DNA of 64,000 nucleotides from Gemmatimonadota bacterium (GCA_036679605.1 JAZDCZ010000291.1:26168-90167); one strand, 5' to 3'. Positions 2,721-64,000 are shown, counted from the stretch's first letter. The notes: generated by a model from the letters alone, not told the origin. Program-made: numbers and translations.

Positions 2721-2843
2721 GTTGATCTGCGCGAGGGCTTTGCCCGTACTCGATCCGCTCTTCCCACCCCAACACCTTACCCCTCGCGTCGAGTCTCTGG
2801 CGACCGCCCTCGCCGACGGCTCCAGTTGCGGTAGCATCCCGTC

Positions 2844-3581
2844 CTATACGGGCGTTACGACGCCGTTCTCGCCTGGTGATTTGAGGCGGTTGATGGGTCG
2901 TTGTTGCGCCATCACGCGTTCGGCGAAGTCGAGCCGTTCGGCAAGTTCCGCCAGCTGACCGGCGTTCTCGGCAAACTGCTGCGCTTGCCGATCGCGCATC
3001 TCCGCAAATCGCATTTCAATCAACTCTTCGGCGTCCGCAAAGCGCGACGCCACGGCTGCGAGCCGGTTCACGTCTTCCGCCTGGAGGCGCGGAGCACGCG
3101 AACGCTGCGGCAGGAGACCGAACGCCACAAGGGCGCGTCGAGGGAGCTTGGCCACGAACTCGAGGGCCGTGATAGCGTAATGGAACGGATTGACCGTTCG
3201 AGCCAGGGCTGTGAAGCGGGTGGCCTCGTATACGCCCAATGCCATGTCGATGATATCGAGGATTTCCTGGTCCGCGCCGTCGGCATACCGGGAGTGGAAG
3301 ATGTTCCGGAGGACCGCGACATCCATCCGCACGGTCGGGCCGGGATCGGTGACGTTGGCAGTCGCTGCATCCAGTCCGGCGGCGTGCACGACCTGGATTA
3401 CGCGCGGCAGCATCCGGTTGATCTCTGAACGGGCACTTTGCGCTCCATCCCAGTCCACCAGCAGGTCGTCCGCAACGTAGCCGGCACGCTCGAAATAGGT
3501 CTCCACCAGCTCGCGGAAGCGGCGGAGATCTCGCGATCGTTGGCGGTTTCTGAAGATCGTAAGCTTGTTGCAGGGTATCAT
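2844..3581 (-). CDS. Hypothetical protein with coiled-coil-like C-terminus
   Basis: 245-aa ORF with natural composition; no recognised family motif. Confidence 0.6.
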   Translation of the reverse strand: MIPCNKLTIFRNRQRSRDLRRFRELVETYFERAGYVADDLLVDWDGAQSARSEINRMLPRVIQVVHAAGLDAATANVTDPGPTVRMDVAVLRNIFHSRYADGADQEILDIIDMALGVYEATRFTALARTVNPFHYAITALEFVAKLPRRALVAFGLLPQRSRAPRLQAEDVNRLAAVASRFADAEELIEMRFAEMRDRQAQQFAENAGQLAELAERLDFAERVMAQQRPINRLKSPGENGVVTPV

Positions 3582-3738
3582 GGTGTCCTGGACGAGAAAG
3601 AGTGTTCGTGGGTTTCAACAGCGGCTACTCGCCGCAGCCCCCACGGCTCGTATGTCCCTATGCCGGCCGGTGTTCGACCCTGCACTGGTGTACAGCTCTA
3701 TGCGCTCAATTACCTCAAGCGTAATATACCGCAACAAG

Positions 3739-3864
3739 TTTCTCTTCAACAACTTCTAGTTTTTGACGGGCGCCTTATGGCGTGGCCATTCGTGGGGCCC
3801 CAAATGGGACCCCAAATCCCTCGCACCTCGCACTTTCTGGCCGGGCCTTGCATCTTCTAGCCCC
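3739..3864 (+). repeat. ~125-bp upstream module, copy 1 (copy 2 at 9209-9339), with a 12-bp tandem repeat and the kinase-head promoter
   Basis: Shared TTTCTCTTCAACAACTTCT, TGGG(G/A)CCCCAAA x2, CACCTCGCACTT and CTTCTAG..ATGAC. Confidence 0.8.
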
Positions 3865-4509
3865 ATGACCGAAATCACGTCCAAGCTTCCAGTGCCCTCG
3901 CCGACCGCTACCGTATCGAGCCACTTGGGCGAAGGTGGCATGGCGACGGTTGACCTGGTGCACGGTGTGAAGCACGACCGCTATTCACGATGGGACTCAT
4001 GTCGCCGAGTTGCTGGAGTCACCGTGGCGCTGACCGTTATGATGGCCTGTGCCACCTCGACACCTCCTTCCCTCACGCCGCTGGCCACACTTGAACACAC
4101 AGAGGCATGGATTACCGAGTGGCTGCCGCGGCTGGCATCCGGTCGCATCCTCCGAGGAGAGATTGTCACGATACTGACCGTGACTGATGTAAGCGTTAAA
4201 GAGTGCGAGGTTCGCTTCCGCATGATCTGGGATGCCGAGTTAGTAGTGGGGCCAGACGCCGGGCCCATCGGCCCGGGAACTATCCGAGAGGAGAGCTTCT
4301 CATGGGCCGAGGTCAGTACGATCAGCATCACACAGTCGGAGGCGTCCGATGGCTTGGTCGGGATCAGTTTTGCCCTGCCGGGTGAAAAGACGGTCGACAT
4401 CATTGCGTTCTCATTCGCCGACGCGCTCGCGAACGCCTTTCGCCACTCACGGGACATGTGCCGAGCGCCGGTCTCTTCCGAGGATCTGAAGGCGAAGGTG
4501 GGGAATTGA
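3865..4509 (+). CDS. Chimeric ORF: decayed kinase head + lipoprotein-like cargo + kinase C-terminal tail
   Basis: Starts MTEITSKL...HLGEGGMATVDLVHGVKHDR, then VAGVTVALTVMMAC (lipobox-like) and an unrelated domain, and ends SEDLKAKVGN*. Confidence 0.65.
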   Translation: MTEITSKLPVPSPTATVSSHLGEGGMATVDLVHGVKHDRYSRWDSCRRVAGVTVALTVMMACATSTPPSLTPLATLEHTEAWITEWLPRLASGRILRGEIVTILTVTDVSVKECEVRFRMIWDAELVVGPDAGPIGPGTIREESFSWAEVSTISITQSEASDGLVGISFALPGEKTVDIIAFSFADALANAFRHSRDMCRAPVSSEDLKAKVGN

Positions 4510-7160
4510 CCGAGATCACGTCCAAGCTCTCGAACGCCCTCGCGGACCGCTACAAAATCGAACGCCACTTGGGTGAAGGCGGCATGGCGACTGTCTACCT
4601 CGCGGAGGACTTGAAACACGAGCGTAAGGTTGCGCTCAAGGTATTGAAGCCCGAACTGGCTGCCGTTCTAGGTGCCGAGCGCTTCGTGCAGGAGATCAAG
4701 ACCACCGCCAATCTCCAACACCCGCACATTTTGCCGCTGTTTGACAGTGGGACGGCGGGAAGGCGGGAAGGCGGGACGGAGTTCCTCTACTATGTGATGC
4801 CGTTTATCGACGGCGAGACGCTGCGCGACAAACTCAACCGCGAAACACAACTCGGTATCGAGGAAGCGGTCCGCATCACCTGTGATGTCGCCGACGCGCT
4901 GGACTATGCGCACCAGCAAGGGGTGATCCACCGCGACATCAAGCCGGAGAACGTCCTGCTTCACAATGGCCGTCCGATGGTAACGGACTTTGGGATCGCC
5001 TTAGCGGTGAGCGCTGCGGCCGGCGGACGGATGACCGAAACCGGACTCTCGCTCGGCACGCCGCACTACATGAGCCCCGAGCAAGCAACCGCCGAGAAAG
5101 ACCTCACTGCGCGGTCGGACATTTACTCCCTCGGCAGTGTGCTCTATGAGATGCTGACTGGAAGCCCACCGCACGTCGGTTCGTCAGCGCAACAGATCAT
5201 CATGAAGATCGTCGCGGAGGATGTGCAGCCCGTCACAGAGTTGCGGAAGTCGGTGCCGCCCCATGTAGCCGCCGCCACGACCAAATCGTTGGAGAACTTA
5301 GCGGCGGATCGGTTCGAGAGTGCGGCGAAGTTCGCGGAGGCGTTGACCAACTCCGCCTTTGTGTTCAACAGTGTCACCAGGATGCAGGCGACGCGTCCGT
5401 CCTCGGCGGGAACACAGAACCGCACCGCCGTCGCGTTTGCTGCATTATCAGGCGTACTTGCGCTCCTGCTTGGGCTGACGGTGCTGGGACAACCCAATGC
5501 GAACGTTTCCGACGTTGGCGTTGCCCGGTTCCCGCTGGTCGGCAATCCGAATTTCCGAATCAACACTGGCAGCACACAACCGTTCGCCATCTCGAGCGAC
5601 GGTGGGACGATCATATTCGCGGCGGATACCGGCAACGGCATGCATCTGTGGGTCAGAACGCTCGCCGATCCAACGCCTCGGATGCTCGAAGGGACGGACC
5701 GGGCGACCCAGCCGGCAATTTCGCCCGACGGCGAGTGGATCGCGTTTGTCGTCGACAATCACATCATTCGCAAGGCACGGCTCGACGGCGGCGGTGTGGA
5801 AGAGGTCGCATCGATTGACAATATCTCGGCGTCGGTCAGTTGGGCGTCGTCTGATGAGATTCTTTTCGAGTTGATCGGCATCCCCGACGGTATTCATCGC
5901 GTAAGCGCGTTCGGCGGCCGCCCTGAACTGTTGATCCCATTGGATACCACGATAAGTGAGGTTCGCCACCGACGCCCCTTTGTCCTTCACCACGAGCGTC
6001 GCGTGCTCTACGCAAGTATGTTGGCCGACGGCTCGTGGAGTCTCGCGATTTTTTCTCTCGACGACGGCCGACGCACACGTCTCGGGATCGACGGGATTCA
6101 AGCGCTCGGGGTGCTCGATGGCCATCTCGTGTATTCGCGCGACGACGGGGCGCTGATGGCCGTTCCGTTCGACGTTCGGGGCATGCGAACGCGTGGAGAT
6201 CCCCGACAATTGCGCGATCGCGTTTTGAGCAGCCCCACAGGTACGGCCGTGATTCTGTCCACCAATGGCAACCTCGTGTATCGCGCCCCGGTGGCCCAGC
6301 CCATGCGACTCTTCTTGGTCGATAGCGCAGGATCCCTGACGCAACTCGGCACGTGGGTTCGCCCATTCGACACGCCCCGTTTCTCCCCAGATGACCGTTA
6401 TGCCGCCGTGACGATTGCCGACGAAGGCGACACGCAAGACCTCTGGATCGTGGATCGCGCAACTGGGGAGGCCACGCAGCTCACGCGGGGGGCACAGGCG
6501 CACCTACAAGATTGGACGCCGGACGGCTCGAGCCTCATATACTCCGAGGGCCGGGTACTCTGGACCATTCGCATCGATGGCAGCGGCGGACCGCGCCGAA
6601 TAACAGCAGTAGAAGGCACCATCAGGGGGGCCTCGATCATGCCCGACGGCGCCTCGATCATCGTATCCCACTCGGACATCGGGACGCTCACCGAAGAACT
6701 CGTTCGGGCGTCGCTACTGGACAGCTCCGTTACGCCCATCGGTTCGGCGGGTCGCCTGCGACCCTTCTTTCCACGAGTTTCACCCGACGGGCGCTGGGTC
6801 GCATACCATGGTCGCAACGACCGGGAAGTACACATCAGTTCGATCGATAGTGCTGGACGAGTACAAGTGTCCGATGCGGGCGGGTACGCACCGATCGTGT
6901 GGGGACCTAACAGTGACCGGGTGTACTACCACACCTCTGCTGGGATCACGGTCGCCGAGATACGTACCAACCCTCGACTCGCAGTCGTCAGGCGTCGTGA
7001 GCTGCATGGATTTCCATTCTTCAGCACGGTGCACGACGTGACTGACGATGGCAGGACGTTCTTGGTGGTGGCACCCGTGGGTGGGGGAAACGAGGACATC
7101 CTCGTCGCACTCAACTGGGGATCGGAGGTCCTGGCGATGCTGCGTAACCAGAACGATTGA
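4506..7160 (+). CDS. Ser/Thr protein kinase K1 (kinase-TM-TolB/PD40 propeller)
   Basis: TTG start overlaps the upstream TGA. Motifs GEGGMATVY, VALK, HRDIKPEN, DFG, GTPHYMSPEQ; TM segment; SPDG repeats. Confidence 0.9.
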   Translation: MTEITSKLSNALADRYKIERHLGEGGMATVYLAEDLKHERKVALKVLKPELAAVLGAERFVQEIKTTANLQHPHILPLFDSGTAGRREGGTEFLYYVMPFIDGETLRDKLNRETQLGIEEAVRITCDVADALDYAHQQGVIHRDIKPENVLLHNGRPMVTDFGIALAVSAAAGGRMTETGLSLGTPHYMSPEQATAEKDLTARSDIYSLGSVLYEMLTGSPPHVGSSAQQIIMKIVAEDVQPVTELRKSVPPHVAAATTKSLENLAADRFESAAKFAEALTNSAFVFNSVTRMQATRPSSAGTQNRTAVAFAALSGVLALLLGLTVLGQPNANVSDVGVARFPLVGNPNFRINTGSTQPFAISSDGGTIIFAADTGNGMHLWVRTLADPTPRMLEGTDRATQPAISPDGEWIAFVVDNHIIRKARLDGGGVEEVASIDNISASVSWASSDEILFELIGIPDGIHRVSAFGGRPELLIPLDTTISEVRHRRPFVLHHERRVLYASMLADGSWSLAIFSLDDGRRTRLGIDGIQALGVLDGHLVYSRDDGALMAVPFDVRGMRTRGDPRQLRDRVLSSPTGTAVILSTNGNLVYRAPVAQPMRLFLVDSAGSLTQLGTWVRPFDTPRFSPDDRYAAVTIADEGDTQDLWIVDRATGEATQLTRGAQAHLQDWTPDGSSLIYSEGRVLWTIRIDGSGGPRRITAVEGTIRGASIMPDGASIIVSHSDIGTLTEELVRASLLDSSVTPIGSAGRLRPFFPRVSPDGRWVAYHGRNDREVHISSIDSAGRVQVSDAGGYAPIVWGPNSDRVYYHTSAGITVAEIRTNPRLAVVRRRELHGFPFFSTVHDVTDDGRTFLVVAPVGGGNEDILVALNWGSEVLAMLRNQND

Positions 7161-7306
7161 CGCTGTCAAGATCCGTGATCTAACGGGAACTTGGGCACAT
7201 TCTTGGGCACATCGACCCGGCAAACACACGCAACTAGACGTAGGCCCCGCGCACAGGGCTTGCTCGAATCCTCGCCAAACCCCGCATCGCACCCCATCTT
7301 AGCCCC

Positions 7307-7441
7307 ATGACCGAGATCACCTCCCGGCTCTCGACCGCCCTCTCCGACCGCTACCAGATCGAGCGCCGTCTCGGCGAAGGCGGAATGGTGACCGCCAATC
7401 CGATTTGGGCTGCGGGGCACCGGTGGGTCGACCGGGAGTAG
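7307..7441 (+). pseudogene. Orphan kinase head (leader ORF)
   Basis: MTEITSRLSTALSDRYQIERRLGEGGMVTA..., TAG at 7439-7441. Preceded by TCGCCA-N17-CATCTT. Confidence 0.85.
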
Positions 7442-7443
7442 CT

Positions 7444-9009
7444 GTGAACATGCCATTGACCATTGCTTCCGCGATTGTCTTGACCGCCGTTCTGGTCAGC
7501 GGGTGCGGACGAGGAAACAACAACGCCGGCGACGGCGGGTCCACGATCACCGTTCTCTACGAAGGCGACGACTTCCTTCTTGGTCCCGCGGGAGATGACA
7601 GCCCAAAGTTCCTCGTGTTCCTTCCGCTGGTGCGAGGCTATGGGTCCGAGGCCCAGCCAAGCCTCGCCGAGCGCTGGGAGCACTCTCTCGACTACACGAC
7701 CTGGACCTATCACCTGCGCCGTGACATCCGCTGGCACGACGGCGCGCCGGTTACTGCGCACGACATCGCGTTCTGCATCCGACTCTTCGCTCACCCCGAT
7801 GTCCTCTTTGCTCAGGGCCAGATTGTCGGGGCTGACGCCACGGCCCTGGACGACTACACGCTCCAGATCACGTGGCAGAACCCCACGGGTCCGGCGGGTG
7901 CACTGTCCGGCTGGACGGTCTATTATCCAAAGCACCTCTTGGAAGGACTTGACCCACAGGATTTCTACACCTTGGATTTCTGGACCAGCCCAATTGGCAA
8001 CGGACCGTATCGGTACGTTCGGCACGTCCCGCAGACGATGATCGAGTTGGAGGCGAATCCCGATTACTACGCAGGACCGCCGGCGATCGAGCGCGTCGTG
8101 CTCAAGCTGAGCACGGCGAACAAGGTCATCGAACTCACGAGCGGGAACGCAGACGTTGCGTACTATGTCCGTCCCGTTGACATCCTCAAGCTCCGCGCCG
8201 AGCCCGAGTTCCGAGTCTATCATCTGTTCGCGTTTAGTGAACCCCAGGCGATTCACTGGAACCAGCGACACCCGTTGCTTGCCGACTCGCGCGTTCGTCA
8301 GGCCCTCTCTCATGCGATCGATCGGCGGGAGCTCTCACGCGTGAACAATCTTCCGGACGAGATGCCTTTGGTGGGTGGCTTGTCACCAGAGGATCGCAGC
8401 GATCGACTCTACCGAGAGGGCAAGCTCGACGCGGGTCCTTCGTACGATCCAACCGCTGCGAGGCAACTCCTCGATGAGGCGGGCTGGGTCGATCGCAACG
8501 GCGACGGCGTACGCGAGCGAAACGGAGTCGCGGCCCGGTTCACGATGATCGTTCAGCAGGGCCGCCTCAGCGCTGTGGAATCGGCGGTGTTCATCCAAGA
8601 CCAGCTCCGGAGGGTGGGTGTCCGGATGGAGATCCGGCCGGTGGACCGGAGCGTATGGCACAACGTCTATCGCGCGGCCGATTTTGACGCCACGATCGGG
8701 GACGTCCCCAACGTGCCCCAATGGCTCCTTGATCGCGACTTCTTCGGTGAAGGAACCAGGATCGGATACCGCAATCCCGAGATCGTGCGGTTACTGGAGA
8801 CACTGACCACCGAGTTCGATCCTACCGTTCAGGACACCCTCTACGCTCAGATCAACGAGATGCTCCGCCGCGACATGCCCGTCACGTTTCTGTTCCCGTA
8901 TGTCGAGTCCATTGTGGCACACCGCAGGATCCAAGGAATTCGCACGCCAGAAAGGGCGAACCTCCTGTCGTACATTGCGGACTTGTGGATCGAAGAGGAC
9001 CGCCGCTAG
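7444..9009 (+). CDS. ABC transporter substrate-binding lipoprotein, family 5 (peptide/nickel)
   Basis: Lipobox LVSGC; LAERWEHS..YTTWTYHLR..RWHDGAPVTAHD; PIGNGPY; VRQALSHAIDR. Start is GTG 7444 or ATG 7450. Confidence 0.88.
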   Translation: MNMPLTIASAIVLTAVLVSGCGRGNNNAGDGGSTITVLYEGDDFLLGPAGDDSPKFLVFLPLVRGYGSEAQPSLAERWEHSLDYTTWTYHLRRDIRWHDGAPVTAHDIAFCIRLFAHPDVLFAQGQIVGADATALDDYTLQITWQNPTGPAGALSGWTVYYPKHLLEGLDPQDFYTLDFWTSPIGNGPYRYVRHVPQTMIELEANPDYYAGPPAIERVVLKLSTANKVIELTSGNADVAYYVRPVDILKLRAEPEFRVYHLFAFSEPQAIHWNQRHPLLADSRVRQALSHAIDRRELSRVNNLPDEMPLVGGLSPEDRSDRLYREGKLDAGPSYDPTAARQLLDEAGWVDRNGDGVRERNGVAARFTMIVQQGRLSAVESAVFIQDQLRRVGVRMEIRPVDRSVWHNVYRAADFDATIGDVPNVPQWLLDRDFFGEGTRIGYRNPEIVRLLETLTTEFDPTVQDTLYAQINEMLRRDMPVTFLFPYVESIVAHRRIQGIRTPERANLLSYIADLWIEEDRR

Positions 9010-9195: not shown

Positions 9196-9593
9196 TTCCG
9201 GTAAACACTTTCTCTTCAACAACTTCTCGTTTTCGACTGTCGCACTTCGGAGCAGCCGTTTGCCGTTTGAGACCCCAAGTGGGACCCCAAACTCCGCACA
9301 CCTCGCACTTCCTCGCCGAAACTCACACCTTCTAGAGCGATGACGGACATGGTGAGACATAGCTGATACTCCCGTGTTATCGTGGCCCTTTCAACGGCCG
9401 CCACTCTTGCGAGCATGTGTACCGCGCTTCATAGTCAATCCTAATATTGGAGACATCTACGCCGGTGGTCCTGGGACCCCGCCGCCGTACTGACGCCGTG
9501 TAGGACGCCCCGTAGGACGCCCCGCTAGACGCCCGCCCGACGACGCGACCCCTCCCAGCCACCGGTGATCATCACGCCTGGAGGGTGGGAACT

Positions 9594-12545
9594 ATGATCC
9601 GCTTGTGTCGCGTCGCGCTCGGCCTTGTCCTCGCAGTGTCTGCACCGTCCGTCGCCACGGCGCAGAGCGACACCGACGGCTGGCGCACGATCGAGTTCGA
9701 GACGAGCCAGGTCACCGCGCCCGACATCGCGATCACGCCCGACGGCCAGTCGCTGATCTTCACACTGCTCGGGCACCTGTTCCGCTTGCCCGTCGAGGGT
9801 GGTGAAGCCGAACAGCTCACCTGTGTTCTCGCAAGACGGCAGCCGGGTGGCATTCATCTCCGATCGGGACGGGAGCGAAGGCAACGTCTTTGTTCTGGAG
9901 CTAGCCGATGGGCAGATTGCGCAGGTCACGCACGAAGTCTGGGCGGGCCGGCCCATCTGGTCTCCTGATGGCGAGGAGATTGTGTATCTGCGGTTCCTGC
10001 GTGACGTATCGGGGCGGTTCTTTGTACTCTCTGAAGTGCGCCGGGTTACCCTGCGCACAGGAGTGCTGGAAACCGTCAGTGCTACCGCGCGGGAGTTCGG
10101 CTCGGTCTTCTATCTGCCGGATGGCCGCTTAGCGTGGACCATCATCGAGCGCCAGGCTCAGATTGGATCTCCCCGTGCAACCACACGGATCGAGGTGGTG
10201 AATCTGCAGGGCGCGGTCTCCCCGCTGCGCACCGTTGAGGGCGTCGTGCACCGTGTCGTACCGAGTCCCACCGACGGTGGTCTCTATTATCGGCGCTATT
10301 TACAGTTGAGCGACCTATTGCTTCAACCGGAAGGTTTGCTGTTCGTGCCGCTCCCCGAGGGTGACGAGCGACAAATCGTATCCGTGTCGAGCTGGCACTT
10401 TTGGTGGTGGAGGCCGCGATTTTCGGTGGCCAGCGACAACAGGACTCTATATGTGGGCGACTCGGGGCGGCTGTGGAAGATTGCGCTGCCCAATGGTGCC
10501 CGCGAACCCATTGCATTTCGCGCCCGTGTTCAACAGGACCTTCAAGACCCGGTGCGGCCACCTAGATGGGAGGCGACGGCACTTGGAGGCTCGGCGGCGC
10601 CGCGCACCGTCTTGCACCCCAGGCTCTCGCCGGACGGCCGCAGGCTGATCTTTGGAGCGGCTGGCTTTCTCTGGGAGCAATCCCTCGGCTCCGGTCAGGG
10701 TGCACCATCGGGTGGCGGACAGGCGACGCGACTGTTTCAGGGGAATACGTTCGAGCAAGCCCCTGCTTTTTCGCCCGACGGACGGCAGTTGGCATTCGTT
10801 CGCAGCGAGGATGGCGAACGAGAAGTCAGAGTCTTCAACTTCGAAAACCGACAGGAGCGCACGCTGGCTTCTGGGCTGCGGTATGGGCAGCCAAGCTGGA
10901 CTCGCGACGGGGAGCGGCTCGTCTTCACCGAGTTTGCATCCGGGAACGCTAGCCTAGTTGCCGTGGTAGCTGGTCGCGCCCGCACCTCTCTGCTGACGGG
11001 GAATCGCTTTACTACTCGGCCAACCTAACCGGCACCAGGACCCTCTACCGCCTCCCGCTGAAGGGAACCGCCAATCCGCAGCCGATCACGCAACTGGCGC
11101 GCCACCTGAACGACGGTCTCGTCTCCCCGGATGGGAAATGGCTAGCCTTCCGGCGCAACAGTGAAATCTGGGTAGCGTCCCTTGGTACCGAGCCCGTCGA
11201 TGAGACCGACATCCATCAGCTCAGCCCGGACGGGGGCGACAGTTTCGACTTTACCGCCGACGGCTCGGCGGTGATCTATTCCGCCGGTAACCGCGTGTGG
11301 CACCACCCACTTGGGGTCGGCGAGTCGGAGGAGATACCCATCCGGCTGGAACTTCAGCCCCCCATGCCGCCCTCTGTGCTGGTGCGGCGGGTGCGCGTGC
11401 TCGATTTCGACGCGGGCGGCTTTGGTCCGGAAACTTCTCTCTTCATCGAGCAGGGGCGCATCCGCTGGATTGGCCCTCAACGTGGACGACGGGTTCCACG
11501 CGAGACCGTCGTTGTCGACGGAGGTGGCCGATTTGCCATACCCGGTTTGTTCGACGCGCACGTGCACAACATCGGAAGTGATCAGGCTGCCTTTCTGGCG
11601 TATGGCATCACCTCGGTGCGCGACCCAGGCGGCGGACTTGCCCACTTGAACACGATGGCGGATCGAGGTGAAACCACCGGCGATCCCGGGCTACGCTACT
11701 TCTTCTCGGGTGACGTTTTCCACGGCGCCCAGCCGTTTTTCAGTGGGTTGCTCCAGATTGTCAACGAAGGCGAAGCTCGAACCCATGTGCGCCGCTGGAA
11801 GGAACAGGGCGCCCAGTTCATGAAGGTCTATACCGACCTGCCCTGGCCGTTGCAGCGGGCGGTGGCGGAGGAAGCCCGACTGCTGGATCTGCCCGTAGCT
11901 GGGCACGGGATGAGTGTGGAAGAAATTACCAAGAGCGTGACCCTGGGATACGCTGTCTTGGAACATGTCAGTATGAACCATCGCCTCTACGACGACGTGC
12001 TCCAGATGCTGGCCGCCGCGGGCACGCGGTGGGACCCGACGCTGGGGGTGCTGGGAGGCAATGACTTGTTGCTGCGGGAGGAACCCGAACGCCTTGCGGA
12101 CGCGAAGTTGCGGGCATTCGCCTCGGCGCAGGCCCTGCGCGCCGCCCGGATCGGCTGGAACATCATAGGGACCAAAGTCTTGCGGGGGTATGTGTTCGAA
12201 CAGCTCGCGGGAATCCGCGCCGCCCATCGGCGGGGCGTCAAACTCTTAGCGGGAACCGACGCTCAGCCAGGGAGTCTAGTCGGGTCGTCCCTCCACTGGG
12301 AGCTGGAACTCTTTGCCCAAGCCGGGCTGCCGCCACTGGACGTGCTCCGCATCGCCACCCAAGAGGCGGCAGCGGCCGTTGGCGCGGAGGACGACCTCGG
12401 CACACTCGAGGTCGGCAAGCTCGCCGACATCGTGCTGCTCGATGCGAATCCCTTAGAGGACATCAAAAACACGCAGACGATCTGGCGCGTGATCAAGGGT
12501 GGGTTCGTGTTCGATCCGGAGGAGTTACGACCGGAGCGGAACTAA
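9594..12545 (+). pseudogene. Secreted PD40/TolB-repeat amidohydrolase, broken by two frameshifts
   Basis: Signal peptide plus TPDGQSLIF (from 9594), frame change near 9820, SPDG repeats, frame change near 10965, then PGLFDAHVH, AGTDA and GTLEVGKLADIV ending at 12545. Confidence 0.75.
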
Positions 12546-12713: not shown

Positions 12714-12806
12714 GTGGCCAGGGGTGGAATTGGTTGCGAAGCAGACGCGAGTGGGGTTGTGGCGGGGGGAGGACGTCAACCACCGACACGAGGATTTTCA
12801 GTCCTC
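12714..12806 (-). pseudogene. tRNA-Phe(GAA) 3'-half remnant interrupted in the T-loop by a 45-bp insert
   Basis: Minus strand reads GAGGA-CTGAAAA-TCCTC GTGTC GGTGG TT [insert 12777-12733] CAATT CCACC CCTGGCCA. Confidence 0.7.
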
Positions 12807-13016
12807 CTACGGGGTGGTACTGACAGGTACCAGTGTACACCAGTGACGCAGAAACGGGCTTTGCTGCACCTTCCTCGGGGTGCTTCAGTGTCTTTCCGCG
12901 ACACCAGTGTACAGGGGTTGGCGCACATTCGAGACGCACGGAAGAGTCGTCAATGGGACCTAGGACGCTGGATTTGATCGCTGGCCACCTGAGCGTCGGC
13001 GCTGCATCTTAGCCCC

Positions 13017-14657: not shown

Positions 14658-14778
14658 GCTGTTCGCGCCCGAACCGCCATGTCCAGGGTCGCCTAACGGA
14701 CTCGACCACAGCCCGGACCCAAACCATCAGCTGCACAGCGAAGTGGCCACCTGAGCCTCGGCACTGCATCTTAGCCCC

Positions 14779-56173: not shown

Positions 56174-57511
56174 ATGAACGATCATTCACTGCGTATCTAC
56201 GACTCGATCCTCGGTTTGCTATCCAGCGTCGAGAACCCCACGCCGCTGGTGCGTCTCAACCGGGTGGTCCCGTTCGAACACACGCAGGTGTATGCCAAAC
56301 TGGAATGGTATAACCCGTTCGGAGCGGTCAAGGACAGGGTCGCGTTCAACATGGTGCGTGACGCCGAGGAGCGCGGCGCGATAGCAGCGGGCCAAAAACT
56401 GGTGGAGCCCACTTCCGGCAACACCGGTCTCGGCCTCGCCATGATCGCCAATGCAAACGGTTACAGCCTGACCACTCCGTTGTCCGACCAGATTCCACAG
56501 GAGAAGCGCACCATGTTGCGTTTCTTCGGCACCGACGTAATAGAATTGGCGGACACGCTGTGCCCTGCGCCGGGTGCTCCGGAAGGTGCCATTGCAAAGG
56601 CGCAGGAGATCGCCGAGCAGCCCGGCTTCCACATGCTGAACCAGTACGGCAACGATGCCAACCCGGAGGCGCACTACAAGACCACCGGACCGGAGATCTG
56701 GCGTCAAACAGACGGCAAGGTGACTCACTTCGTGGCGGGTCTAGGAACGTGCGGTACGATCACCGGGGTGGGCCGGTTCTTGAAGGAACAAAACTCCGAA
56801 GTGCAGGTACTGGGCGTTCACCCAGCCGAAGGGCACGATATCCCGGGTGTTCGGAGCATTCGGCAGCTGCAGCAGACGCGGTTTTTCCATCCCGAGAAGT
56901 ACGATGGGTTAGTAGAGATCCAGAACCAGGAGGCGTTCGAACTGAGCCAGCGGTTGAACCGGGAAGAAAGCATCACAGCGGGACCAAGCTCCGCGATGGC
57001 TCTCGCGGGTGCGTTCAAGCTGATCGCCGACGAACCGGACAACCTGGTTGTGGTGATCTTCCCCGACAGCGCATTCAAGTACGCCTCTTCGGTCGTCAAG
57101 CATCTTCCCGGACTCGGTTCGGCGCCGGCGAGTGCGAAGAGCAAATGGGAAGAGTTGCTCGACGAGATGATCGAGAACGCCAGGATCAATCCTGACCTGA
57201 CGCTAGACGCCGAGGCGGCCCACGAGCTGTGGGAAAAGCACGCACCGCTCGTGATAGATGTGCGGGACAACTCAGAATACAGCGTAACGCATATTCCCGG
57301 CGCCATCAACGCTCCGCTTCTCGAGATGGCCGAGCATCTAGCCGAACTTCCTGAAGATCGCGACACAGCGATCCTCACCGTGTGTCAGCGGGGCAACATG
57401 TCGTTGCCCGGCGTCCTGTTCCTGCACAGTCTGGGCTACGGATGCGCGCGAAGCGTTACCGGCGGGATAAACGCTTGGCAGGAGATGGGCTTCGCCACCG
57501 AGTCGTCATGA
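56174..57511 (+). CDS. Cysteine synthase-family PLP enzyme fused to a C-terminal rhodanese
   Basis: KLEWYNPFGAVKDR, EPTSGNTG, GLGTCGT; then IDVR, HIPGA, CQRGNMS, GGINAW. Confidence 0.85.
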   Translation: MNDHSLRIYDSILGLLSSVENPTPLVRLNRVVPFEHTQVYAKLEWYNPFGAVKDRVAFNMVRDAEERGAIAAGQKLVEPTSGNTGLGLAMIANANGYSLTTPLSDQIPQEKRTMLRFFGTDVIELADTLCPAPGAPEGAIAKAQEIAEQPGFHMLNQYGNDANPEAHYKTTGPEIWRQTDGKVTHFVAGLGTCGTITGVGRFLKEQNSEVQVLGVHPAEGHDIPGVRSIRQLQQTRFFHPEKYDGLVEIQNQEAFELSQRLNREESITAGPSSAMALAGAFKLIADEPDNLVVVIFPDSAFKYASSVVKHLPGLGSAPASAKSKWEELLDEMIENARINPDLTLDAEAAHELWEKHAPLVIDVRDNSEYSVTHIPGAINAPLLEMAEHLAELPEDRDTAILTVCQRGNMSLPGVLFLHSLGYGCARSVTGGINAWQEMGFATESS

Positions 57512-57569
57512 ACCGAGAGACAGATCTCAGCAGTTAGTCGTCATCACATCTCAATCTGTTGGAGGATGG

Positions 57570-59099
57570 ATGAAAAAATTTTTCGTTCTCGCGCTTTTCG
57601 CACTGACCGTTATCGTGCCGGTCGAAATCGTAGCACAGGAGAAGAAGGCGGAGGCCGCGCCTGAACCAGTCGCTTCACGCTGGGAAAGCCATCACTCGAT
57701 TGTGGTGGCCGGTGAGACCGTCGAATACGACGCGGTGGTGGGGAGCATCATCCTGCGTGACAGCAGCGAGAAGGCGTCGGCGGAGCTTTTCTACACCGCG
57801 TATTTCCGCACCGGCGTCAAAGACCGGTCCACTCGGCCGATCATCTTTTCGTACAATGGTGGGCCGGGCTCTGCCTCGTTTTGGCTGCACATGGGAGTAA
57901 TGGGCCCGCGCCGAGTGGTGACGCCCAACGTCGGCCAACAATCACCGCCCCCGTATCCTCTGGTGGACAACGAATACACGCTGCTCGACAACGCCGACAT
58001 CGTGATGATCGATCCGGTCGGTACCGGGTTCAGTCGTCCAGCCGGCGAGGCCGAGGGGAAGGATTTCTGGGGGCTCGACGAGGACGCGCGCTCGCTGACA
58101 CAGTTCATCCGCCGGTTTCTCAGTGAAAACGAACGCTGGAACTCGCCGCGCTATCTACTCGGTGAGAGCTACGGCACTACACGCTCGGCAGTGCTGTCGC
58201 GACACTTGCAGGGCGCAAACATCGATCTCAACGGAATCGTGCTGGTGTCCGCGGTCCTCGACTTCAACACGATTCTGTTCCCACCGGGCGCGGATCTGCC
58301 GTACATCGTCAACGTGCCGTCCTTCGCCGTCGTCGCGGCTTATCTCGACGCTCTGCCCGGCGGGAGGCCGGCAAATCTCGAAGAGTTCATGAAAGAGGTC
58401 GAGCATTGGGCGCTTACGGACTACGCAACCACATTGCTTGCAGGTGGGACAGTCGACGCCGGACAGCGGCAGCGGGTGCTCGAGCAGATGCACCGCTACA
58501 CGGGTCTCAGTCCTGATTTTCTGGACAAGGCCGACCTACGGGTATCGGCTCCCGAATTCGAGAAGGAGTTACTGCGTGACCGGGGGCTCGTCGTCGGACG
58601 GCTCGATGCCCGGTTCACCGGCCCGACAGGTGACCTGCTTCGGACGACGCCGAATCACGATCCTCAATCGACGGCGATAAGTTCCGCGTACACTTCCGTG
58701 TTCAACACATACGTTCGGCAAGAGTTGGGTTACGACGGAGATCGTGAGTACGTGCCGAGTGGAATGGCCAGGAATTGGAAGTGGGCCCGTGGCAACAACA
58801 TCGGCTTCGGTCTCTCGGGCATCCCCAACGTGGCGCCCGATTTGGCCACCGCGATCCAACGAAATCCCAAATTGGAAGTGCTGCTGGTCAGCGGAATCTA
58901 CGATCTCGCGACGCCGTATTTCGCTGCCGTCTGGACGATGGACCACATGGGACTGCCGGCAGATCTACGCGATAACATTCAGCGCGCGGACTTCGCGGCA
59001 GGGCACATGATGTATGTCGAGCAGAGCCTCCTGCCGCAGTGGAAGCGGACGTTGGACGCGTTCATCGAGCGTACGTCGCGGCCGGCGTTGATTCCTTAG
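57570..59099 (+). CDS. S10 family serine carboxypeptidase, secreted
   Basis: NGGPGS, DPVGTGFS, GESYG, AGHMMY. Confidence 0.9.
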   Translation: MKKFFVLALFALTVIVPVEIVAQEKKAEAAPEPVASRWESHHSIVVAGETVEYDAVVGSIILRDSSEKASAELFYTAYFRTGVKDRSTRPIIFSYNGGPGSASFWLHMGVMGPRRVVTPNVGQQSPPPYPLVDNEYTLLDNADIVMIDPVGTGFSRPAGEAEGKDFWGLDEDARSLTQFIRRFLSENERWNSPRYLLGESYGTTRSAVLSRHLQGANIDLNGIVLVSAVLDFNTILFPPGADLPYIVNVPSFAVVAAYLDALPGGRPANLEEFMKEVEHWALTDYATTLLAGGTVDAGQRQRVLEQMHRYTGLSPDFLDKADLRVSAPEFEKELLRDRGLVVGRLDARFTGPTGDLLRTTPNHDPQSTAISSAYTSVFNTYVRQELGYDGDREYVPSGMARNWKWARGNNIGFGLSGIPNVAPDLATAIQRNPKLEVLLVSGIYDLATPYFAAVWTMDHMGLPADLRDNIQRADFAAGHMMYVEQSLLPQWKRTLDAFIERTSRPALIP

Positions 59100-59278
59100 G
59101 GAATGACAAATGACCAATGTCCAATGATCAATATCCAGTACTAATGATGTGAGTGCAGCAGCGTTGGACATTCTGCCTTGGATATTCTGCGGTTCTCATG
59201 ACCGAAATCACTTCCCAGGCACGCGGAGCACCGGACTACTTGACCAGTCTGACTAGTCCGTTTACCTTGGCCAGATGA
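59099..59278 (+). repeat. Tail remnant + heptamer spacer (copy 4) + orphan head at 59198
   Basis: GGGAATGA, heptamer repeats, then ATGACCGAAATCACTTCC. That frame ends at TGA 59276-59278, overlapping the antitoxin ATG. Confidence 0.82.
59232..59274 (+). promoter_or_regulatory. Putative leaderless sigma70 promoter with operator palindrome for vapBC
   Basis: TTGACC (59240) - 17 nt - TACCTT (59263) - 6 nt - ATG. Inverted arms CGGACTA/TAGTCCG flank the -35 box. Confidence 0.65.
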
Positions 59279-59547
59279 GAGATACCTATTCCCTCTATGA
59301 GGCCAAGGCCAAGCTGTCGGCCATCGTCCGTCAGGTCCGAGAGGGACGGCCGGTGGTGATCACTGTCCATGGTGAACCCGCCGTTGAGATCCGGCCGGTT
59401 GAGAAGACAGAAGACGGACTCGAGGCGCGGCTGGCGAGACTAGAGGAGCGCGGCGTTCTGCTTAGGCGCGATCCCGCCGCCGCGAGGCTCGCATCCGTCG
59501 CGAAGCGGCCCGGCGCGCTCGCGAGGTTCCTGGCGGAACGGGACTAA
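59275..59547 (+). CDS. Phd/YefM-family antitoxin
   Basis: YSLYEAKAKLSAIVRQV..G.PVVITVHGEPAVEIRP; stop overlaps the toxin start (TAATG). Confidence 0.85.
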   Translation: MRDTYSLYEAKAKLSAIVRQVREGRPVVITVHGEPAVEIRPVEKTEDGLEARLARLEERGVLLRRDPAAARLASVAKRPGALARFLAERD

Positions 59548-59927
59548 TGCGTGTCGCGTACGTCGACACGTCGTGTCTTGCTTCGATCGTGTTCCGTGAG
59601 CCAGAAGCCTCCGCAGTCAAGCGAAGACTCGAGCGGTTCGATGATCTCTTCTCCTCTAACCTGCTCGAGGCCGAGCTGCGCGCCGCTTGTTTGCGAGAAG
59701 GAGTGGAAAGCGACCCAGTGATTCTGTCTGCGGTCTCGTGGGTCATCCCCGAAAGGCCATTGAGCGCAGAGATCACTCGTGTGCTGGAGGCGGGGTACGT
59801 GCGCGGAGCCGACTGCTGGCACCTGGCCACTGCGCTCCTCCTGGTTGGTGAGCCCGCCGAGATCTCTTTCCTGACGCTCGATGAGCGGCAAGCGCAGGTG
59901 GCCCGAACGCTGGGGTTCCGCAAGTGA
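59547..59927 (+). CDS. vapC: PIN-domain (VapC-like) toxin
   Basis: AYVDTS, LLEAE, RGADCWHLATA, FLTLDERQ. Confidence 0.85.
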   Translation: MRVAYVDTSCLASIVFREPEASAVKRRLERFDDLFSSNLLEAELRAACLREGVESDPVILSAVSWVIPERPLSAEITRVLEAGYVRGADCWHLATALLLVGEPAEISFLTLDERQAQVARTLGFRK

Positions 59928-59930
59928 CGC

Positions 59931-60143
59931 GAGGGAACGTCCAATGTCCAATAATCAATGCCCAAGAACCAAGGATCCGTCAGCCTTGGACATTGGACGT
60001 TCTGCATTGGATATTCTGCGGTTGAGATGACTGAAATCACGGGACGCCTGAACTCCGCCCTCACCGGCCGCTATAAGATCGAACGCCGTCTTGGTGAAGG
60101 TGGCGCGAACCGCAAGGTTTCTCAGAATGGCTGCAGGGTGTGA
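59931..60143 (+). repeat. Tail remnant + heptamer spacer (copy 5) + orphan head (60027-60104)
   Basis: GAGGGAA, heptamers, then MTEITGRLNSALTGRYKIERRLGEGG followed by unrelated sequence and a stop at 60143. Confidence 0.85.
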
Positions 60144-60273
60144 TTGGTAGGAAAACGACAGCCGGAGACCAAATGACCTCCGGCTGTCAGGCGCAGCGAA
60201 CTGGCTACGCGAATTCGCACCCCGTACTTTATACTAATCAAGCGCTAGGAGCCAAGTCAATGACGGCGGTGGG

Positions 60274-60357
60274 TGCTGGCGGTCGGAGTCGAACCGACAA
60301 GGGCCGAAGCCCGACGGGGTGCGAACCCGTTGCGTTTACCAGTTTCACCACGCCAGC
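60274..60357 (-). tRNA. Class II (Leu-type body) tRNA with anticodon CGC (reads Ala codon GCG)
   Basis: GCTGGCG TG GTG AAACTGGTAAA CGC A ACGGG-TTCGCAC-CCCGT C GGGC-TTCG-GCCC TT GTCGG-TTCGACT-CCGAC CGCCAGC A. All stems pair. Confidence 0.85.
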
Positions 60358-60554
60358 ACCCGATCTCGGTAGCAACCTCTGGTAACCCGAAGGCAAGACG
60401 CACGGAGTCACACTCGTTCCGAACTGTTCTGTAGAGGATAACGACAATCTTGGAGAGTTCATCATCACTTCGACGCGTGAAGTGACACGTTTTTGCGAGT
60501 GCTTCCCTTCGAGAAGGCAGCTTTGTGGTTTTTTTCGGGACACGTCCCACAGTA

Positions 60555-60618
60555 GCCGAGCCCGCCCTTCAGGGCGGGACTCCCCAAAACCTGCGTTGCG
60601 TTGCATCTTAGTCCCGCC
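60555..60618 (+). promoter_or_regulatory. Kinase-head promoter repeat
   Basis: Nearly identical to 53415-53471; TCCCCA (60581) - N17 - CATCTT (60604). Confidence 0.7.
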
Positions 60619-63351
60619 ATGACCGAAATCACTTCCCGCCTCTCGACCGCCCTCACCGGCCGCTATAAGATCGAACGCCGCCTTGGTGAAGGTGGTATGG
60701 CCACAGTTTACCTTGCGGAGGATCTCAAACACGAGCGCAAGGTCGCGCTCAAGGTGTTGAAGCCGGAACTCGCGGCCGTCCTAGGTGCTGAGCGTTTCGT
60801 GCAGGAGATCAAGACCACCGCTAACCTGCAGCATCCAAACATCTTGCCGCTGTTTGACAGCGGGACGGCAGGTGGACCGGACGACGGCATCACGGACGAT
60901 TCCGAGCACGGGCGAGGCATGCCTCGCCCTTTCCTTTATTACGTGATGCCGTTCATCGACGGCGAGACGCTACGCGACAAGCTCAACCGCGAAACACAGC
61001 TCGGCATCGAGGAGGCGGTGAAGATCGCGACGGATGTTGCGGACGCACTCGATTACGCGCACCGCAACAACGTGATCCATAGGGACATCAAGCCAGAGAA
61101 CATCCTGTTGCACGACGGGCGTCCGATGGTGGCGGACTTTGGGATCGCGCTGGCGGTGAGCGCGGCAGCCGGTGGGCGCATGACGGAAACGGGTCTCTCA
61201 CTCGGCACGCCGCACTACATGAGCCCCGAACAGGCGACGGCGGAGAAGGATCTTACGTACCGTTCGGACATCTACTCGTTGGGCAGCGTGCTCTACGAGA
61301 TGTTGACAGGGAGCCCACCGCACGTCGGCTCGTCTGCGCAGCAGATCATCATGAAGATCGTCGCGGAAGATGTGCAGCCGGTGGCAGAGTTACGGAAGTC
61401 GGTGCCGCCCCATGTGGCGGCTGCGGTCGCGAAGTCGTTGGAGAAGTTGGCGGCCGATCGGTTTGGGACGGCGCAGGAGTTCGCCGAGGTTCTCGAAGGC
61501 CGACGTCAGATAGTGGTCTCGACGGATGCTGCCATTTCAAGGCCGGCGCTGCCACGTCGTTCTGCGTATCCTATGGCGGTCGGCGGCGCGGCTGTCGGTG
61601 CCCTCTTGGCGACGACGGTTTTCTTGATCGTGAATCGCGCGGCGCCGGAGCGGGTCGAGCGCTGGACGATCGCGTCCCTGCCGTACGTGGACACGATACC
61701 AATCGATCAAGTGCTGGACATCTCGCCCGACGGCACGCAGCTCGTGTACGTTGCTGCCGATTCCACGGCACGGCAGGTACTTGAGGTGCGCGCATTAGAC
61801 CGGACCGCCGGAACCCCGCTGCCCGGAACGGCCAATGCCCGGTTTCCCCGGTTCTCCCCCGACGGAGGGCGCGTGGCCTTTCTGGCCCCGCCGGGGGCGG
61901 TTAAGTGGATGGACATAGAGGGCGGCACGCCACAGACGCTTGCGGAGGCGGAATCGTTTGGCCTGTGCTGGGGCGACGATGGGTACATCTACTTCCCTCG
62001 GCCCGCAACGAAAAGCATTCCGGCCGGGATCTCGCGTGTTCCGGAGCGGGGCGGGCAACCCACCGTGATCACGACCATCGATTCCACACGAGGGGAATAC
62101 GTGCACGCCTGCCAGCAGGTGTTAACGGGGGGGGGCGGGCTCTTGTATCTGAACGCGCCTGCGGGAGGCATGGACGCTACGGAACTTACGACCTACTCAT
62201 TCGCGACCGGTCAGAGTGAACTCCTGCTACGAGCCCCGTTCGGCCTCGTTGCCTCCACCGGCCAGCTCGTCTACATCACCCTCGACCACACGTTGACCGC
62301 AGCCCCGTTCGACGACAAGACCTTGAAGCTCACGGGCCCGCCGGTCAGCCTCGCCCCCAACGTCTTTGCGAATCAAGACTTCACTGCGTTTGCGTTATCT
62401 GCCGCCGGTACGCTGCTGTATGCCGATATGGAACCGCGGCTGAGCCGGCTGGCATGGGTGGATCGCGCGGGCGTTGCGACCGGCATTGGCGAGGGCCGCA
62501 CCCAGGAGTTCACCAGTTTTGCCCTGTCACGGGATGGGAAGCAGATTGTCGCGGCAATAAGCCGGGATGGAGTGTCCGCACTCTGGGTGTACACGCTTCC
62601 GCTTGGTCCGTGGACCCGGCTCTTCGGTGGGGTCTCCGATGCTGATGCCAGCGGCGGCCGCCCTGCATGGGACCCCAGTAGGGAGAGGATATCGTTCATG
62701 GCTACGGGCGCAAACGGCCGGAGCACTGCGTGGAGCGTTGCGGCGGACGGCCAGACGCCCGCGCAAGAGCTGCGGCACGTTACATCGATTCCCGTTCAGG
62801 ACGGAGAGTATTCGCCGGACGGCCACTGGTTCGTGTTCCGTCAAGGTCCCGTGGGACCACGGCAGCGTGATATCCTCTATGCGTGGCCTGACCCCGACAG
62901 CGCGGCATATCCCTTGGCGGTGACCGATGCGGACGAGTTCGCGCCCACGATCTCGCCCGACGGACGCTGGCTCGCCTACGTATCGGGAGAGGAGGGACAA
63001 GAGGAGATTGTGGTACAGCCGTTTCCGGACCCAGGACCACGGACACGGGTGTCCCTCGACGGCGGCTTCGAGCCACGGTGGGCGCATTCCGGGCGCGAGT
63101 TGTTTTATCGTGACCGCGCCGGAAACCTCGTTGCCGCGGAGGTCCGCATCGGGGCGAACATCTCCATTGGCGAGCGCCGTGTGCTCTTCTCCGCCAAACG
63201 GTTTCTCAACGATCGCAACGCCGCGCTGTACGACGTCGCGCCCGACGACCAACGGTTTCTGTTCATCGAGCCCGTCTCTGGTGGAAAGCTGAGGTGGAAA
63301 CTCGTGCGTGGGTTCTTATCCGAGCTGAAGGCGAAGGTGGGGAGCGAATGA
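60619..63351 (+). CDS. Ser/Thr protein kinase K11 (kinase-TM-PD40 propeller)
   Basis: Motifs intact; insert after LFDSG; ends FLSELKAKVGSE*. Confidence 0.92.
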   Translation: MTEITSRLSTALTGRYKIERRLGEGGMATVYLAEDLKHERKVALKVLKPELAAVLGAERFVQEIKTTANLQHPNILPLFDSGTAGGPDDGITDDSEHGRGMPRPFLYYVMPFIDGETLRDKLNRETQLGIEEAVKIATDVADALDYAHRNNVIHRDIKPENILLHDGRPMVADFGIALAVSAAAGGRMTETGLSLGTPHYMSPEQATAEKDLTYRSDIYSLGSVLYEMLTGSPPHVGSSAQQIIMKIVAEDVQPVAELRKSVPPHVAAAVAKSLEKLAADRFGTAQEFAEVLEGRRQIVVSTDAAISRPALPRRSAYPMAVGGAAVGALLATTVFLIVNRAAPERVERWTIASLPYVDTIPIDQVLDISPDGTQLVYVAADSTARQVLEVRALDRTAGTPLPGTANARFPRFSPDGGRVAFLAPPGAVKWMDIEGGTPQTLAEAESFGLCWGDDGYIYFPRPATKSIPAGISRVPERGGQPTVITTIDSTRGEYVHACQQVLTGGGGLLYLNAPAGGMDATELTTYSFATGQSELLLRAPFGLVASTGQLVYITLDHTLTAAPFDDKTLKLTGPPVSLAPNVFANQDFTAFALSAAGTLLYADMEPRLSRLAWVDRAGVATGIGEGRTQEFTSFALSRDGKQIVAAISRDGVSALWVYTLPLGPWTRLFGGVSDADASGGRPAWDPSRERISFMATGANGRSTAWSVAADGQTPAQELRHVTSIPVQDGEYSPDGHWFVFRQGPVGPRQRDILYAWPDPDSAAYPLAVTDADEFAPTISPDGRWLAYVSGEEGQEEIVVQPFPDPGPRTRVSLDGGFEPRWAHSGRELFYRDRAGNLVAAEVRIGANISIGERRVLFSAKRFLNDRNAALYDVAPDDQRFLFIEPVSGGKLRWKLVRGFLSELKAKVGSE

Positions 63352-63440
63352 CGAATGACCAATAATGAACAAGGAACGATGAAGTCGAGCTGCGCTTACT
63401 TCGACATTCGACATCCCTTGTTCGATATTCTACGGTTCCT
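63348..63440 (+). repeat. Diverged heptamer spacer (copy 6)
   Basis: AATGACG AATGACC AATAATG ... TTCGACA TTCGACA ... GATATTCTACGGTTCCT ATG. Confidence 0.7.
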
Positions 63441-64000
63441 ATGACCGACAACACCGTCCGTCTCTCCACCGCCCTTAGCGGTAGATACAAGATCGAACGC
63501 CGCCTCGGCGAAGGCGGCATGGCCACCGTCTACTTAGCAGAGGATCTCAAGCACAAGCGCAAAGTCGCACTCAAGGTGCTGCGTCCCGAACTCGCAGCGG
63601 TCTTGGGTGCCGAGCGTTTTGTGCAGGAGATAACCACCACTGCGAATTTGCAACACCCGCACATCCTCCCGCTGTTCGACTCAGGCGAGGCGGATGGGTT
63701 CCTCTACTACGTGATGCCGTTCATCGACGGCGAGACGCTGCGCGATAAACTCAACCGCGAAACACAACTGAGCATCGACGAGGCGGTCAGCATAACGACC
63801 GCCATTGCGGACGCGCTCGACTACGCGCATCGCAACAACGTGATCCATAGGGACATCAAGCCCGAGAACATCCTGCTCCACGACGGCCGGCCGATGGTGG
63901 CGGACTTTGGGATCGCCTTGGCCGTGAGCGCTGCAGCAGGTGGTCGCATGACCGAGACGGGGCTCTCACTCGGCACACCGCACTACATGAGCCCCGAACA
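63441..64000 (+). CDS. Ser/Thr protein kinase K12, partial (runs off the right end)
   Basis: MTDNTVRLSTALSGRYKIERRLGEGGMATVY...HRDIKPEN...DFG...GTPHYMSPE. Confidence 0.9.
   Translation, partial: MTDNTVRLSTALSGRYKIERRLGEGGMATVYLAEDLKHKRKVALKVLRPELAAVLGAERFVQEITTTANLQHPHILPLFDSGEADGFLYYVMPFIDGETLRDKLNRETQLSIDEAVSITTAIADALDYAHRNNVIHRDIKPENILLHDGRPMVADFGIALAVSAAAGGRMTETGLSLGTPHYMSPE

Follow-up and report, generated by a model that had tools for sequence, protein, structure and literature searches.

Tandem arrays of Hanks-type receptor kinase genes are subject to ectopic recombination between paralogs, and orphan Rhs and CdiA modules can be grouped with silent-cassette arrays as a further analogue of the arrangement described here. 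The locus occupies the terminal 64 kb of contig C214 in the Gemmatimonadota bacterium GCA_036679605.1 (JAZDCZ010000291.1:26168-90167; hereafter the window, 64,000 nucleotides long). It shares with tandem kinase arrays a conserved kinase domain, variable PD40 or TPR C-termini and stop/start coupling, but has an added layer of very many promoter-head stubs standing before unrelated cargo genes. A stub combines a putative promoter with the 5' end of a kinase gene that lacks its body (an orphan head), and these heads are kinase-gene remnants left in place. The original prediction, made from the window alone, had seen an integron-like cassette array built on the two ends of a kinase gene, in which a recurring block of kinase tail, spacer or promoter, and kinase head serves as a portable recombination and expression site.

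Three other described systems invite comparison. Additive flexible genomic islands at tRNA genes are known from Alteromonas (Lopez-Perez and Rodriguez-Valera 2016, PMC4898812); they too have a tRNA at the insertion site, downstream part-tRNA repeats, different cargo at one place in relatives, and near-identical cargo across taxa. Here, in contrast, kinase promoter-heads mark most cargo boundaries (about 22 kinase starts against four tRNA remnants), and the scaffold, like the promoters, comes from a family of signalling genes. The Neisseria mafB/fhaB silent cassettes and minimal mobile elements (Bentley et al. 2007, PMC1797815) resemble the array in having arrayed short parent-gene pieces, proposed as homologous-recombination substrates, and alternative cargo at a syntenic slot. 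There, however, each orphan is a silent, alternative C-terminus for the parent gene, into which it recombines, whereas here the 5' end and promoter are followed by an unrelated whole gene. The cargo belongs to families of its own and does not consist of alternative C-termini; only three window genes are in-frame fusions to a few head residues. Integrons, and the genome-inserted cassettes (SALIN) formed by attC x attG recombination (Loot et al., bioRxiv 10.1101/2022.09.11.507474), share promoter-less cargo under a resident promoter, an array-like look and toxin-antitoxin cargo, but the present locus has no intI, attI or attC, no fixed crossover, and a promoter for each unit. No published description of this arrangement was found in the literature searched, which left out most subscription papers. 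Each ingredient (deletion, promoter capture, ectopic recombination, tRNA islands) is known already; what is unusual is how extensive and regular the arrangement is here.

The bin containing C214 is 6.7 Mb (completeness 96.5%, contamination 6.3%) and its host group comprises uncultured sediment bacteria; close relatives of the kinase domains (78-88% identity) come nearly all from Gemmatimonadota records. Below, genomes are labelled G, contigs of this genome (G000) C, and fetched loci L. As had been claimed, the window holds 12 co-oriented kinase genes, all on the + strand (starts in Table 1), of which nine are kinase-PD40, one kinase-cyclase/AAA-TPR and one kinase-TPR, with the last (63441) cut by the end of C214. 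Their kinase domains are about 66-84% identical at the DNA level, with PD40 or TPR C-termini and stop/start coupling.

The eight main orphan heads proposed earlier are all real. Scored as the best ungapped identity to an intact start and compared with three shuffled windows, they gave 22/22 (3865), 52/60 (7307), 54/58 (13017), 26/30 (14779), 18/21 (18229), 27/33 (20275), 19/19 (59198) and 50/60 (60027), each with no equal match in any shuffled window, far beyond chance. The four weaker candidates fared differently: 47620 passes (12/13, 0 chance matches), as does 2801 (17/20 to an intact head, 0.2 chance matches), the latter being an internal head piece with neither start codon nor promoter, fused to a tRNA-Lys 3' remnant. 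Head 9340 fails on sequence (8/9, about 39 chance matches) and stands by position, having the same promoter as 3865 and lying where a contig of an independent run (X3) continues from 9334 into a full head, while 43862 (12/15, about 5 chance matches) is not supported by sequence. The tails stood up in part. Those at 4479-4509 and 41013-41043 are real and about 30 nt long, but that at 22839 has about 15 nt, and those at 59099 and 59931 are 8-9 nt and merely mark the left edge of the spacer. Each tail joins the next start directly or through a heptamer-repeat hairpin spacer of about 100 nt (six copies in the window). The tail is a minor element carried along with the start or spacer that follows it, and of the proposed recurring block it is the promoter and head that are conserved and that matter. 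A link between the spacer and four-helix-bundle genes was considered and set aside, since the genome's two TIGR02436 genes are flanked by heptamer arms of similar style but different sequence, a resemblance only.

Repeated kinase sequence could in principle have produced these junctions by mis-assembly, and the contig does end within a kinase gene. Contigs built with another assembler from run X1 span 3506-4516, 7312-9068, 13045-14806, 16213-18620 and 18591-22300 with 0 mismatches at depth 13-18, crossing the junctions at 3865, 7307, 13017, 18229 and 20275; the order across repeated kinase domains is not bridged. X1 is probably the source sample, so this agreement tests the assembly and not independence, and joints between kinase copies at depth about 100 were taken as paralogs of other organisms and excluded. 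Two genomes assembled as single contigs, G085 and G093, likewise have many orphan heads in the regions fetched from them. An X1 contig does have 26 and 46 nt near 9822 and 10965 that the window lacks, but with the head/cargo junctions bridged, mis-assembly is hardly credible as the source of the arrangement. The two insertions, carried by both X1 and X3 contigs, fall in the PD40/amidohydrolase gene (9594-12545), which is fragmented; the difference is either a local assembly error or a strain variant.

The array is an additive genomic island anchored at tRNA-Lys, a feature absent from the earlier reading. It begins right behind tRNA-Lys(CTT); the 3' part of this tRNA is repeated three times further on and a tRNA-Phe 3' remnant follows (Table 1). 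The content behind tRNA-Lys differs in G112, G155, G124, G118 and G085, and together with the tRNA border and the internal tRNA remnants this identifies an additive tRNA island. The stretch 9060-9345 matches 26 of 151 family genomes (this one included), many through the tRNA alone. Across this genome, a tRNA is found no more than 30 kb away from 18 of the 32 orphan heads and from 37 of the 78 intact kinases, compared with 26% of random points. Integrases that target tRNA genes probably seeded the island ends, although none was found in the window, where the island is incomplete because of the contig end, or in 20 fetched tRNA-Lys regions of relatives.

That the orphan heads are remnants of kinase genes is seen from their lengths, junctions and surroundings. 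This genome has 32 of them beside 78 full kinase domains and four starts cut off by a contig end. All but one of the 32 measure 15-148 nt, and the exception reflects an internal deletion at 392. Loci in other genomes, with duplicates removed by identical sequence, gave 77 head candidates (14 later set aside) of 0 to 513 nt, most under 200 nt. Inspection of the 109 head candidates revealed no shared junction motif, and head lengths are continuous. Within the head the breakpoints vary, which is one of the outcomes that the original prediction had named as counting against itself, yet nearly all of them fall in the opening ~150 nt of a gene 2.6 kb long, a strong restriction. In G112, a member of another genus, the M28 peptidase gene (window 18371-20168, 84% identical) and the same divergent promoter region are followed by an intact kinase, and in the window the corresponding slot holds head 20275 and the copper oxidase. 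Similarly, the upstream context of head 13017 recurs on C419, where an intact kinase follows it, and at other places where it is followed by heads of 15, 147 and 160 nt. Ten loci were chosen because the head seemed to continue into later parts of the kinase, and in eight of these the head is confirmed to be joined to later kinase sequence, often with a few overlapping bases and in one form as a head-tail mini open reading frame. A codon-position test for neutral decay of the heads was not discriminating (362 of 631 differences at third positions for orphans, 1306 of 2182 for intact genes). On L082 (753-1433) four tandem kinase heads with short palindromic repeats between them precede an intact kinase.

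The cargo behind these remnants changes from genome to genome, as the claim of swapping at the junctions had anticipated, and in G001 the genes near the kinases stand in another order as well. Behind the upstream sequence that we call promoter A there are ten truncated or vestigial heads (two in the window and one each on L225, L223, L229, L224, L139, L218, L166 and L164), one full-length, frameshifted kinase (L160) and one locus without a clear head (L212). The cargo differs on each annotated occasion: ABC ATPase, FAD oxidoreductase, DUF418, NMT1-like, methyltransferase, Sel1 and MatE. A Phd/YefM-PIN pair homologous to that of the window stands behind a head in another genome (L080).

Many kinase starts have a -10-like box 4-12 nt 5' of the ATG and a -35-like box 17-18 nt further upstream, a spacing that would fit a leaderless sigma70-type promoter, whose transcript would begin with the A of the ATG itself. 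The upstream sequences fall into three recurrent types: A lies behind tRNA-Lys ends and a direct-repeat doublet, which may be an arm-type-like or an activator site; B, of which there are about 20 copies, lies inside tRNA-Phe ends and in most cases has its left edge between -37 and -47; and C lies behind a palindrome. The correspondence of the left edge of B with the tRNA-Phe 3' end itself was set aside, the two being in opposite orientation and palindromic. Boxes precede 14 of 20 orphan heads and 15 of 40 intact genes in this genome (p 0.028); in other loci, partly fetched with promoter queries and not independent of one another, they precede 22 of 42 orphan heads and 37 of 131 intact genes (p 0.005). 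For these counts heads were found with the kinase model alone, and 14 mis-called candidates and starts below 65% identity were excluded. Exact metagenome matches to box plus head numbered three, all of them truncated heads (176, 147 and 39 nt). This enrichment before orphan heads supports the idea that the junction block is an expression slot, in so far as putative promoters can be read from their motifs. The GC-rich palindrome before promoter C occurs at 20219, 35449, 38679, 47710, 53414 and 60555 and resembles IS200/IS605 or REP ends; on C113 a Y1 transposase gene is divergent to a kinase.

Heads also coincide with the limits of some duplicated segments. The order in G001 is tRNA-Pro, head, FAA hydrolase, head, intact kinase. 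C265 shares 1129 nt with G001 (92%); the match begins at -36 relative to the first head and stops at +36 within the second, and beyond it C265 has a RidA-like gene, then a third head followed by a DUF2306 gene. The RidA-like unit of C265 is present on C301 (89%), where it begins at -11 relative to one head, extends to +47 in the following head and has an intact kinase behind it, and C87 shares the DUF2306 unit with C265 from -40. The head-RidA junction is identical on C265 and C301, and upstream of -11 there are two different kinase promoter types, the second of which recurs before another head on C87. One head-RidA junction behind two promoters implies an exchange after loss of the kinase body, within about 47 bp (-11 to +36). 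Pieces of the parent gene are seen as homologous crossover points in C265, C301, C87, C88 and G001, cases that are few and not independent; the tetranucleotide use of the four contigs resembles that of the genome (0.93-0.99). More broadly, when all segments near heads that are shared at 84% identity or more were scored, eight ends at region edges were dropped and 28 remained; 10 of these lie in promoter-heads, where about 11% would be expected by chance (p 4.5e-4). Both recA and comEC are present in the genome. The proposal of a portable recombination site is sustained to the extent that several duplicated segments begin and end inside promoter-heads.

The likeness to integrons does not hold. 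The array is not an integron, because it lacks attC, has no integrase on its contig, and shows continuous head lengths without a shared motif; a fixed crossover point (GTT or GWT) was likewise not found. No intI lies next to the array, whose far end is unassembled; TIGR02249 matches above the cut-off occur only on C73 and C407, and neither tyrosine recombinase (PF00589) nor Y1 transposase was found on C214. A heuristic scan for attC gave only two window matches, both weak, poorly folding and intragenic; the ends of the cargo had none, nor did 16 further loci that bear heads. C73 and C407 carry two complete integrons with canonical attC, and intI C-terminal fragments occur on C173, C251 and C276. 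With two integron integrases in the genome and a toxin-antitoxin pair among the cargo, IntI might have inserted cassettes at genomic attG sites inside kinase genes, but the scan that recovers ordinary attC at both integrons finds no credible one in the window or the 16 loci, the cargo often comprises several genes or lies on the other strand, and insertion would leave the remainder of the kinase downstream, where it is missing. The lack of a credible attC in the window and of a tyrosine recombinase on C214 makes the attC x attG route inapplicable, and we regard it as very improbable.

A recombinase acting in trans, either a tRNA-island tyrosine integrase or an HUH enzyme, could instead target the att-arm, promoter and head and load cargo behind the promoter. 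The genome-wide search found 33 Phage_integrase matches above the cut-off and five Y1_Tnp matches; promoter A lies behind tRNA-Lys 3' ends and the direct-repeat doublet in several genera, and promoter B has a sharp left edge inside tRNA-Phe ends. Set against these, the head junctions have no fixed breakpoint or motif, none of the enzymes is encoded on C214, and an integrase is absent from the window and the 20 fetched tRNA-Lys regions. We consider targeting in trans distinctly unlikely.

A plausible scenario, and in our judgment the probable one, is that kinase paralogs increase in number within tRNA islands, that loss of the kinase body captures cargo under the kinase promoter, and that the stubs together with full kinase domains provide the homology for RecA-type exchange. 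It would begin with kinase genes that have a compact promoter-like motif 4-12 nt 5' of the start or overlap the stop of the preceding kinase. Illegitimate deletion or replacement at variable points would then repeatedly remove the kinase body, giving the arrangement seen, promoter plus a head of 15-200 nt before a new gene, which the promoter would presumably drive. The scarcity of long remnants is probably due to continued erosion, or to polarity and half kinases being selected against. Heads and intact kinase domains would then act as dispersed homology at which RecA-type crossovers insert, drop or re-pair segments of cargo and promoter-head between loci and strains, as in the one clear set of loci above and presumably more generally. 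No dedicated recombinase would be needed for deletion or exchange.

Several observations weigh against this scenario. Of the scored segment ends, 18 of 28 lie outside promoter-heads, and C265 is involved in six of the ten that lie within them. The solute-binding protein gene (7444-9008, 91%) is shared with G112 from start to stop codon only and has other neighbours there, and M28 cargo shared with other genera matches over the gene alone and not to the head. The 6.3% contamination of the bin means that duplicated segments may come from co-binned strains, and about 47 bp at less than 100% identity is short for RecA. Cargo is co-oriented with promoter-bearing heads 35:18 and with promoterless ones 13:14, a difference that is not significant (p 0.15), from a noisy gene caller confused by antisense open reading frames. 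Heads 18229, 47620 and 60027 have no expression role, because they are promoterless and face opposite-strand genes. Finally, erosion alone does not explain the sharp left edge of promoter B near -37.

Pure decay would account for many of the same facts: in a fast-turning island where kinases arise and die, heads would be what is left over, retained for the promoter if for anything, and all shuffling would have taken place between full kinase domains before the bodies were lost. The continuous head lengths, the indels and lost start codons in several heads, and the direct internal deletions fit this well, and gene ends account for most shared-segment ends. However, the identical head-RidA junction with two kinase promoters requires exchange after body loss, and G001, C265, C301 and C87 differ by whole head-bounded units, so that we think decay by itself unlikely, if quite conceivable. 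Body loss followed by exchange at the stubs remains our preferred explanation. A stronger proposal, that the promoter-head is a selected, lineage-wide gene-capture device which switches on promoter-less genes and at which cassettes from a pool common to Gemmatimonadales genera are exchanged, is speculative and we doubt it; the same doubt applies to its extension, an integron analogue derived from a signalling gene, perhaps with kinase-regulon control and possibly with help in trans from a tRNA-island recombinase.

Table 1. Features of the window (positions counted from its first nucleotide).
Feature	Coordinates	Strand	Remarks
tRNA-Lys(CTT), island anchor	2438..2511	+	array begins directly behind
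tRNA-Lys 3' end, second copy	2562..2666	+	hairpin-like insert within T loop
Third tRNA-Lys 3' remnant (2785-2802)	2785..2820	+	fused to internal kinase-head piece (2801)
Promoter type A	3739..3864	+	upstream direct-repeat doublet
Hollowed kinase	3865..4509	+	~117-nt head, lipoprotein-like cargo and kinase tail in a single reading frame
Kinase-PD40 gene 1	4506..7160	+	TTG start overlaps stop of preceding tail
Promoter and 88-nt orphan head (7307)	7271..7394	+
Cargo, SBP_bac_5 solute-binding protein	7444..9009	+
tRNA-Lys 3' part from anticodon loop	9076..9195	+	attR-like; ~75-nt T-loop insert
Promoter type A, direct-repeat doublet, vestigial head (9340)	9209..9348	+
Cargo, PD40/amidohydrolase gene	9594..12545	+	in pieces
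tRNA-Phe 3' remnant	12720..12804	-	T-loop insert
Promoter type B and 69-nt head (13017)	12981..13085	+
Second SBP_bac_5 cargo	13017..14657	+	in frame with head
Promoter type B and 30-nt head (14779)	14744..14808	+
Cyclase-family cargo	14779..15621	+	in frame with head
Kinase-PD40 gene 2	15638..18232	+
21-nt head	18229..18249	+	coupled to gene 2 stop
Cargo, M28 peptidase	18384..20186	-
Promoter type C and 33-46-nt head (20275)	20210..20320	+	palindrome upstream
Cargo, multicopper oxidase and MaoC dehydratase	20355..22840	+
Short tail and heptamer-repeat hairpin spacer	22839..22940	+	tail ~15 nt
Kinase-PD40 gene 3	22941..25670	+
Spacer copy	25658..25755	+
Kinase-cyclase-AAA-TPR gene 4	25756..29304	+
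Kinase-PD40 gene 5	30482..33145	+
Promoter type C and kinase-PD40 gene 6	35449..38195	+	start 35505
Promoter type C and kinase-TPR gene 7	38679..41007	+	start 38737
Orphan PD40-type tail and spacer	41013..41135	+	tail ~30 nt (41013-41043)
Kinase-PD40 gene 8	41136..43865	+
Kinase-PD40 gene 9	43926..46535	+
Decayed orphan head	47620..47658	+
Cargo, 2 amidohydrolases, alpha/beta hydrolase, M20 peptidase	47851..53308	-
Promoter type C and kinase-PD40 gene 10	53414..56160	+	start 53479
Cargo, PALP-rhodanese protein and S10 peptidase	56174..59099	+
Spacer and 19-nt head (59198)	59094..59216	+
Cargo, Phd/YefM-PIN toxin-antitoxin pair	59275..59927	+
Spacer and 78-nt head (60027)	59928..60104	+
tRNA-like gene, long variable arm	60270..60358	-	anticodon CGC
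Promoter type C and kinase-PD40 gene 11	60555..63351	+	start 60619
Spacer and kinase gene 12	63339..64000	+	start 63441; cut by contig end

Among other features of the island and genome, a small gene at 38238-38624 (-) between kinases 6 and 7 has repeat copies on C26, C113, C357 and C161 (80-91% identity). Behind the G112 copy of the solute-binding protein gene (L110/L155), which is 91% identical to that of the window at the DNA level, stands a kinase head of 27 nt that is fused to a transposase-like remnant. Duplicated tRNA 3' ends (Lys and Phe) repeatedly carry a hairpin-like T-loop insert of 45-75 nt in several genera, at the three window copies marked in Table 1 and on L229/L135 and L160, which suggests a small repeat that targets the T loop. 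The tRNA-like gene with a long variable arm has a tRNA-Leu-like body and conserved flanks, and is present in seven copies in this genome (the window, C88:41720, C93:53116, C162:10477, C401:16998, C154:43677 and C91:339) and two more in G001 (L025:4442 and L028:1508), with the Ala or Val anticodons CGC, CAC or AGC. Visual inspection gives 7/5 for the copy in the window, and not 8/4 or 9/3 as in the allo-tRNAs of Mukai et al. (PMC5389517); like those it adjoins a toxin-antitoxin pair. The family could represent mistranslating tRNAs or a non-coding RNA. C343:60648-149584, with 24 tRNA genes and deviant tetranucleotide use (0.82), is likely a phage, plasmid or contaminant.

If body loss and exchange at the stubs do operate as proposed, an expanding gene family would build its own gene-capture scaffold, each dead paralog leaving behind a working promoter and a patch of homology, and islands could acquire and reshuffle foreign genes without an integrase. 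This makes testable one source of native promoters for horizontally acquired genes, and would account for the many short 'kinase fragment' open reading frames and contig breaks in Gemmatimonadota genomes.

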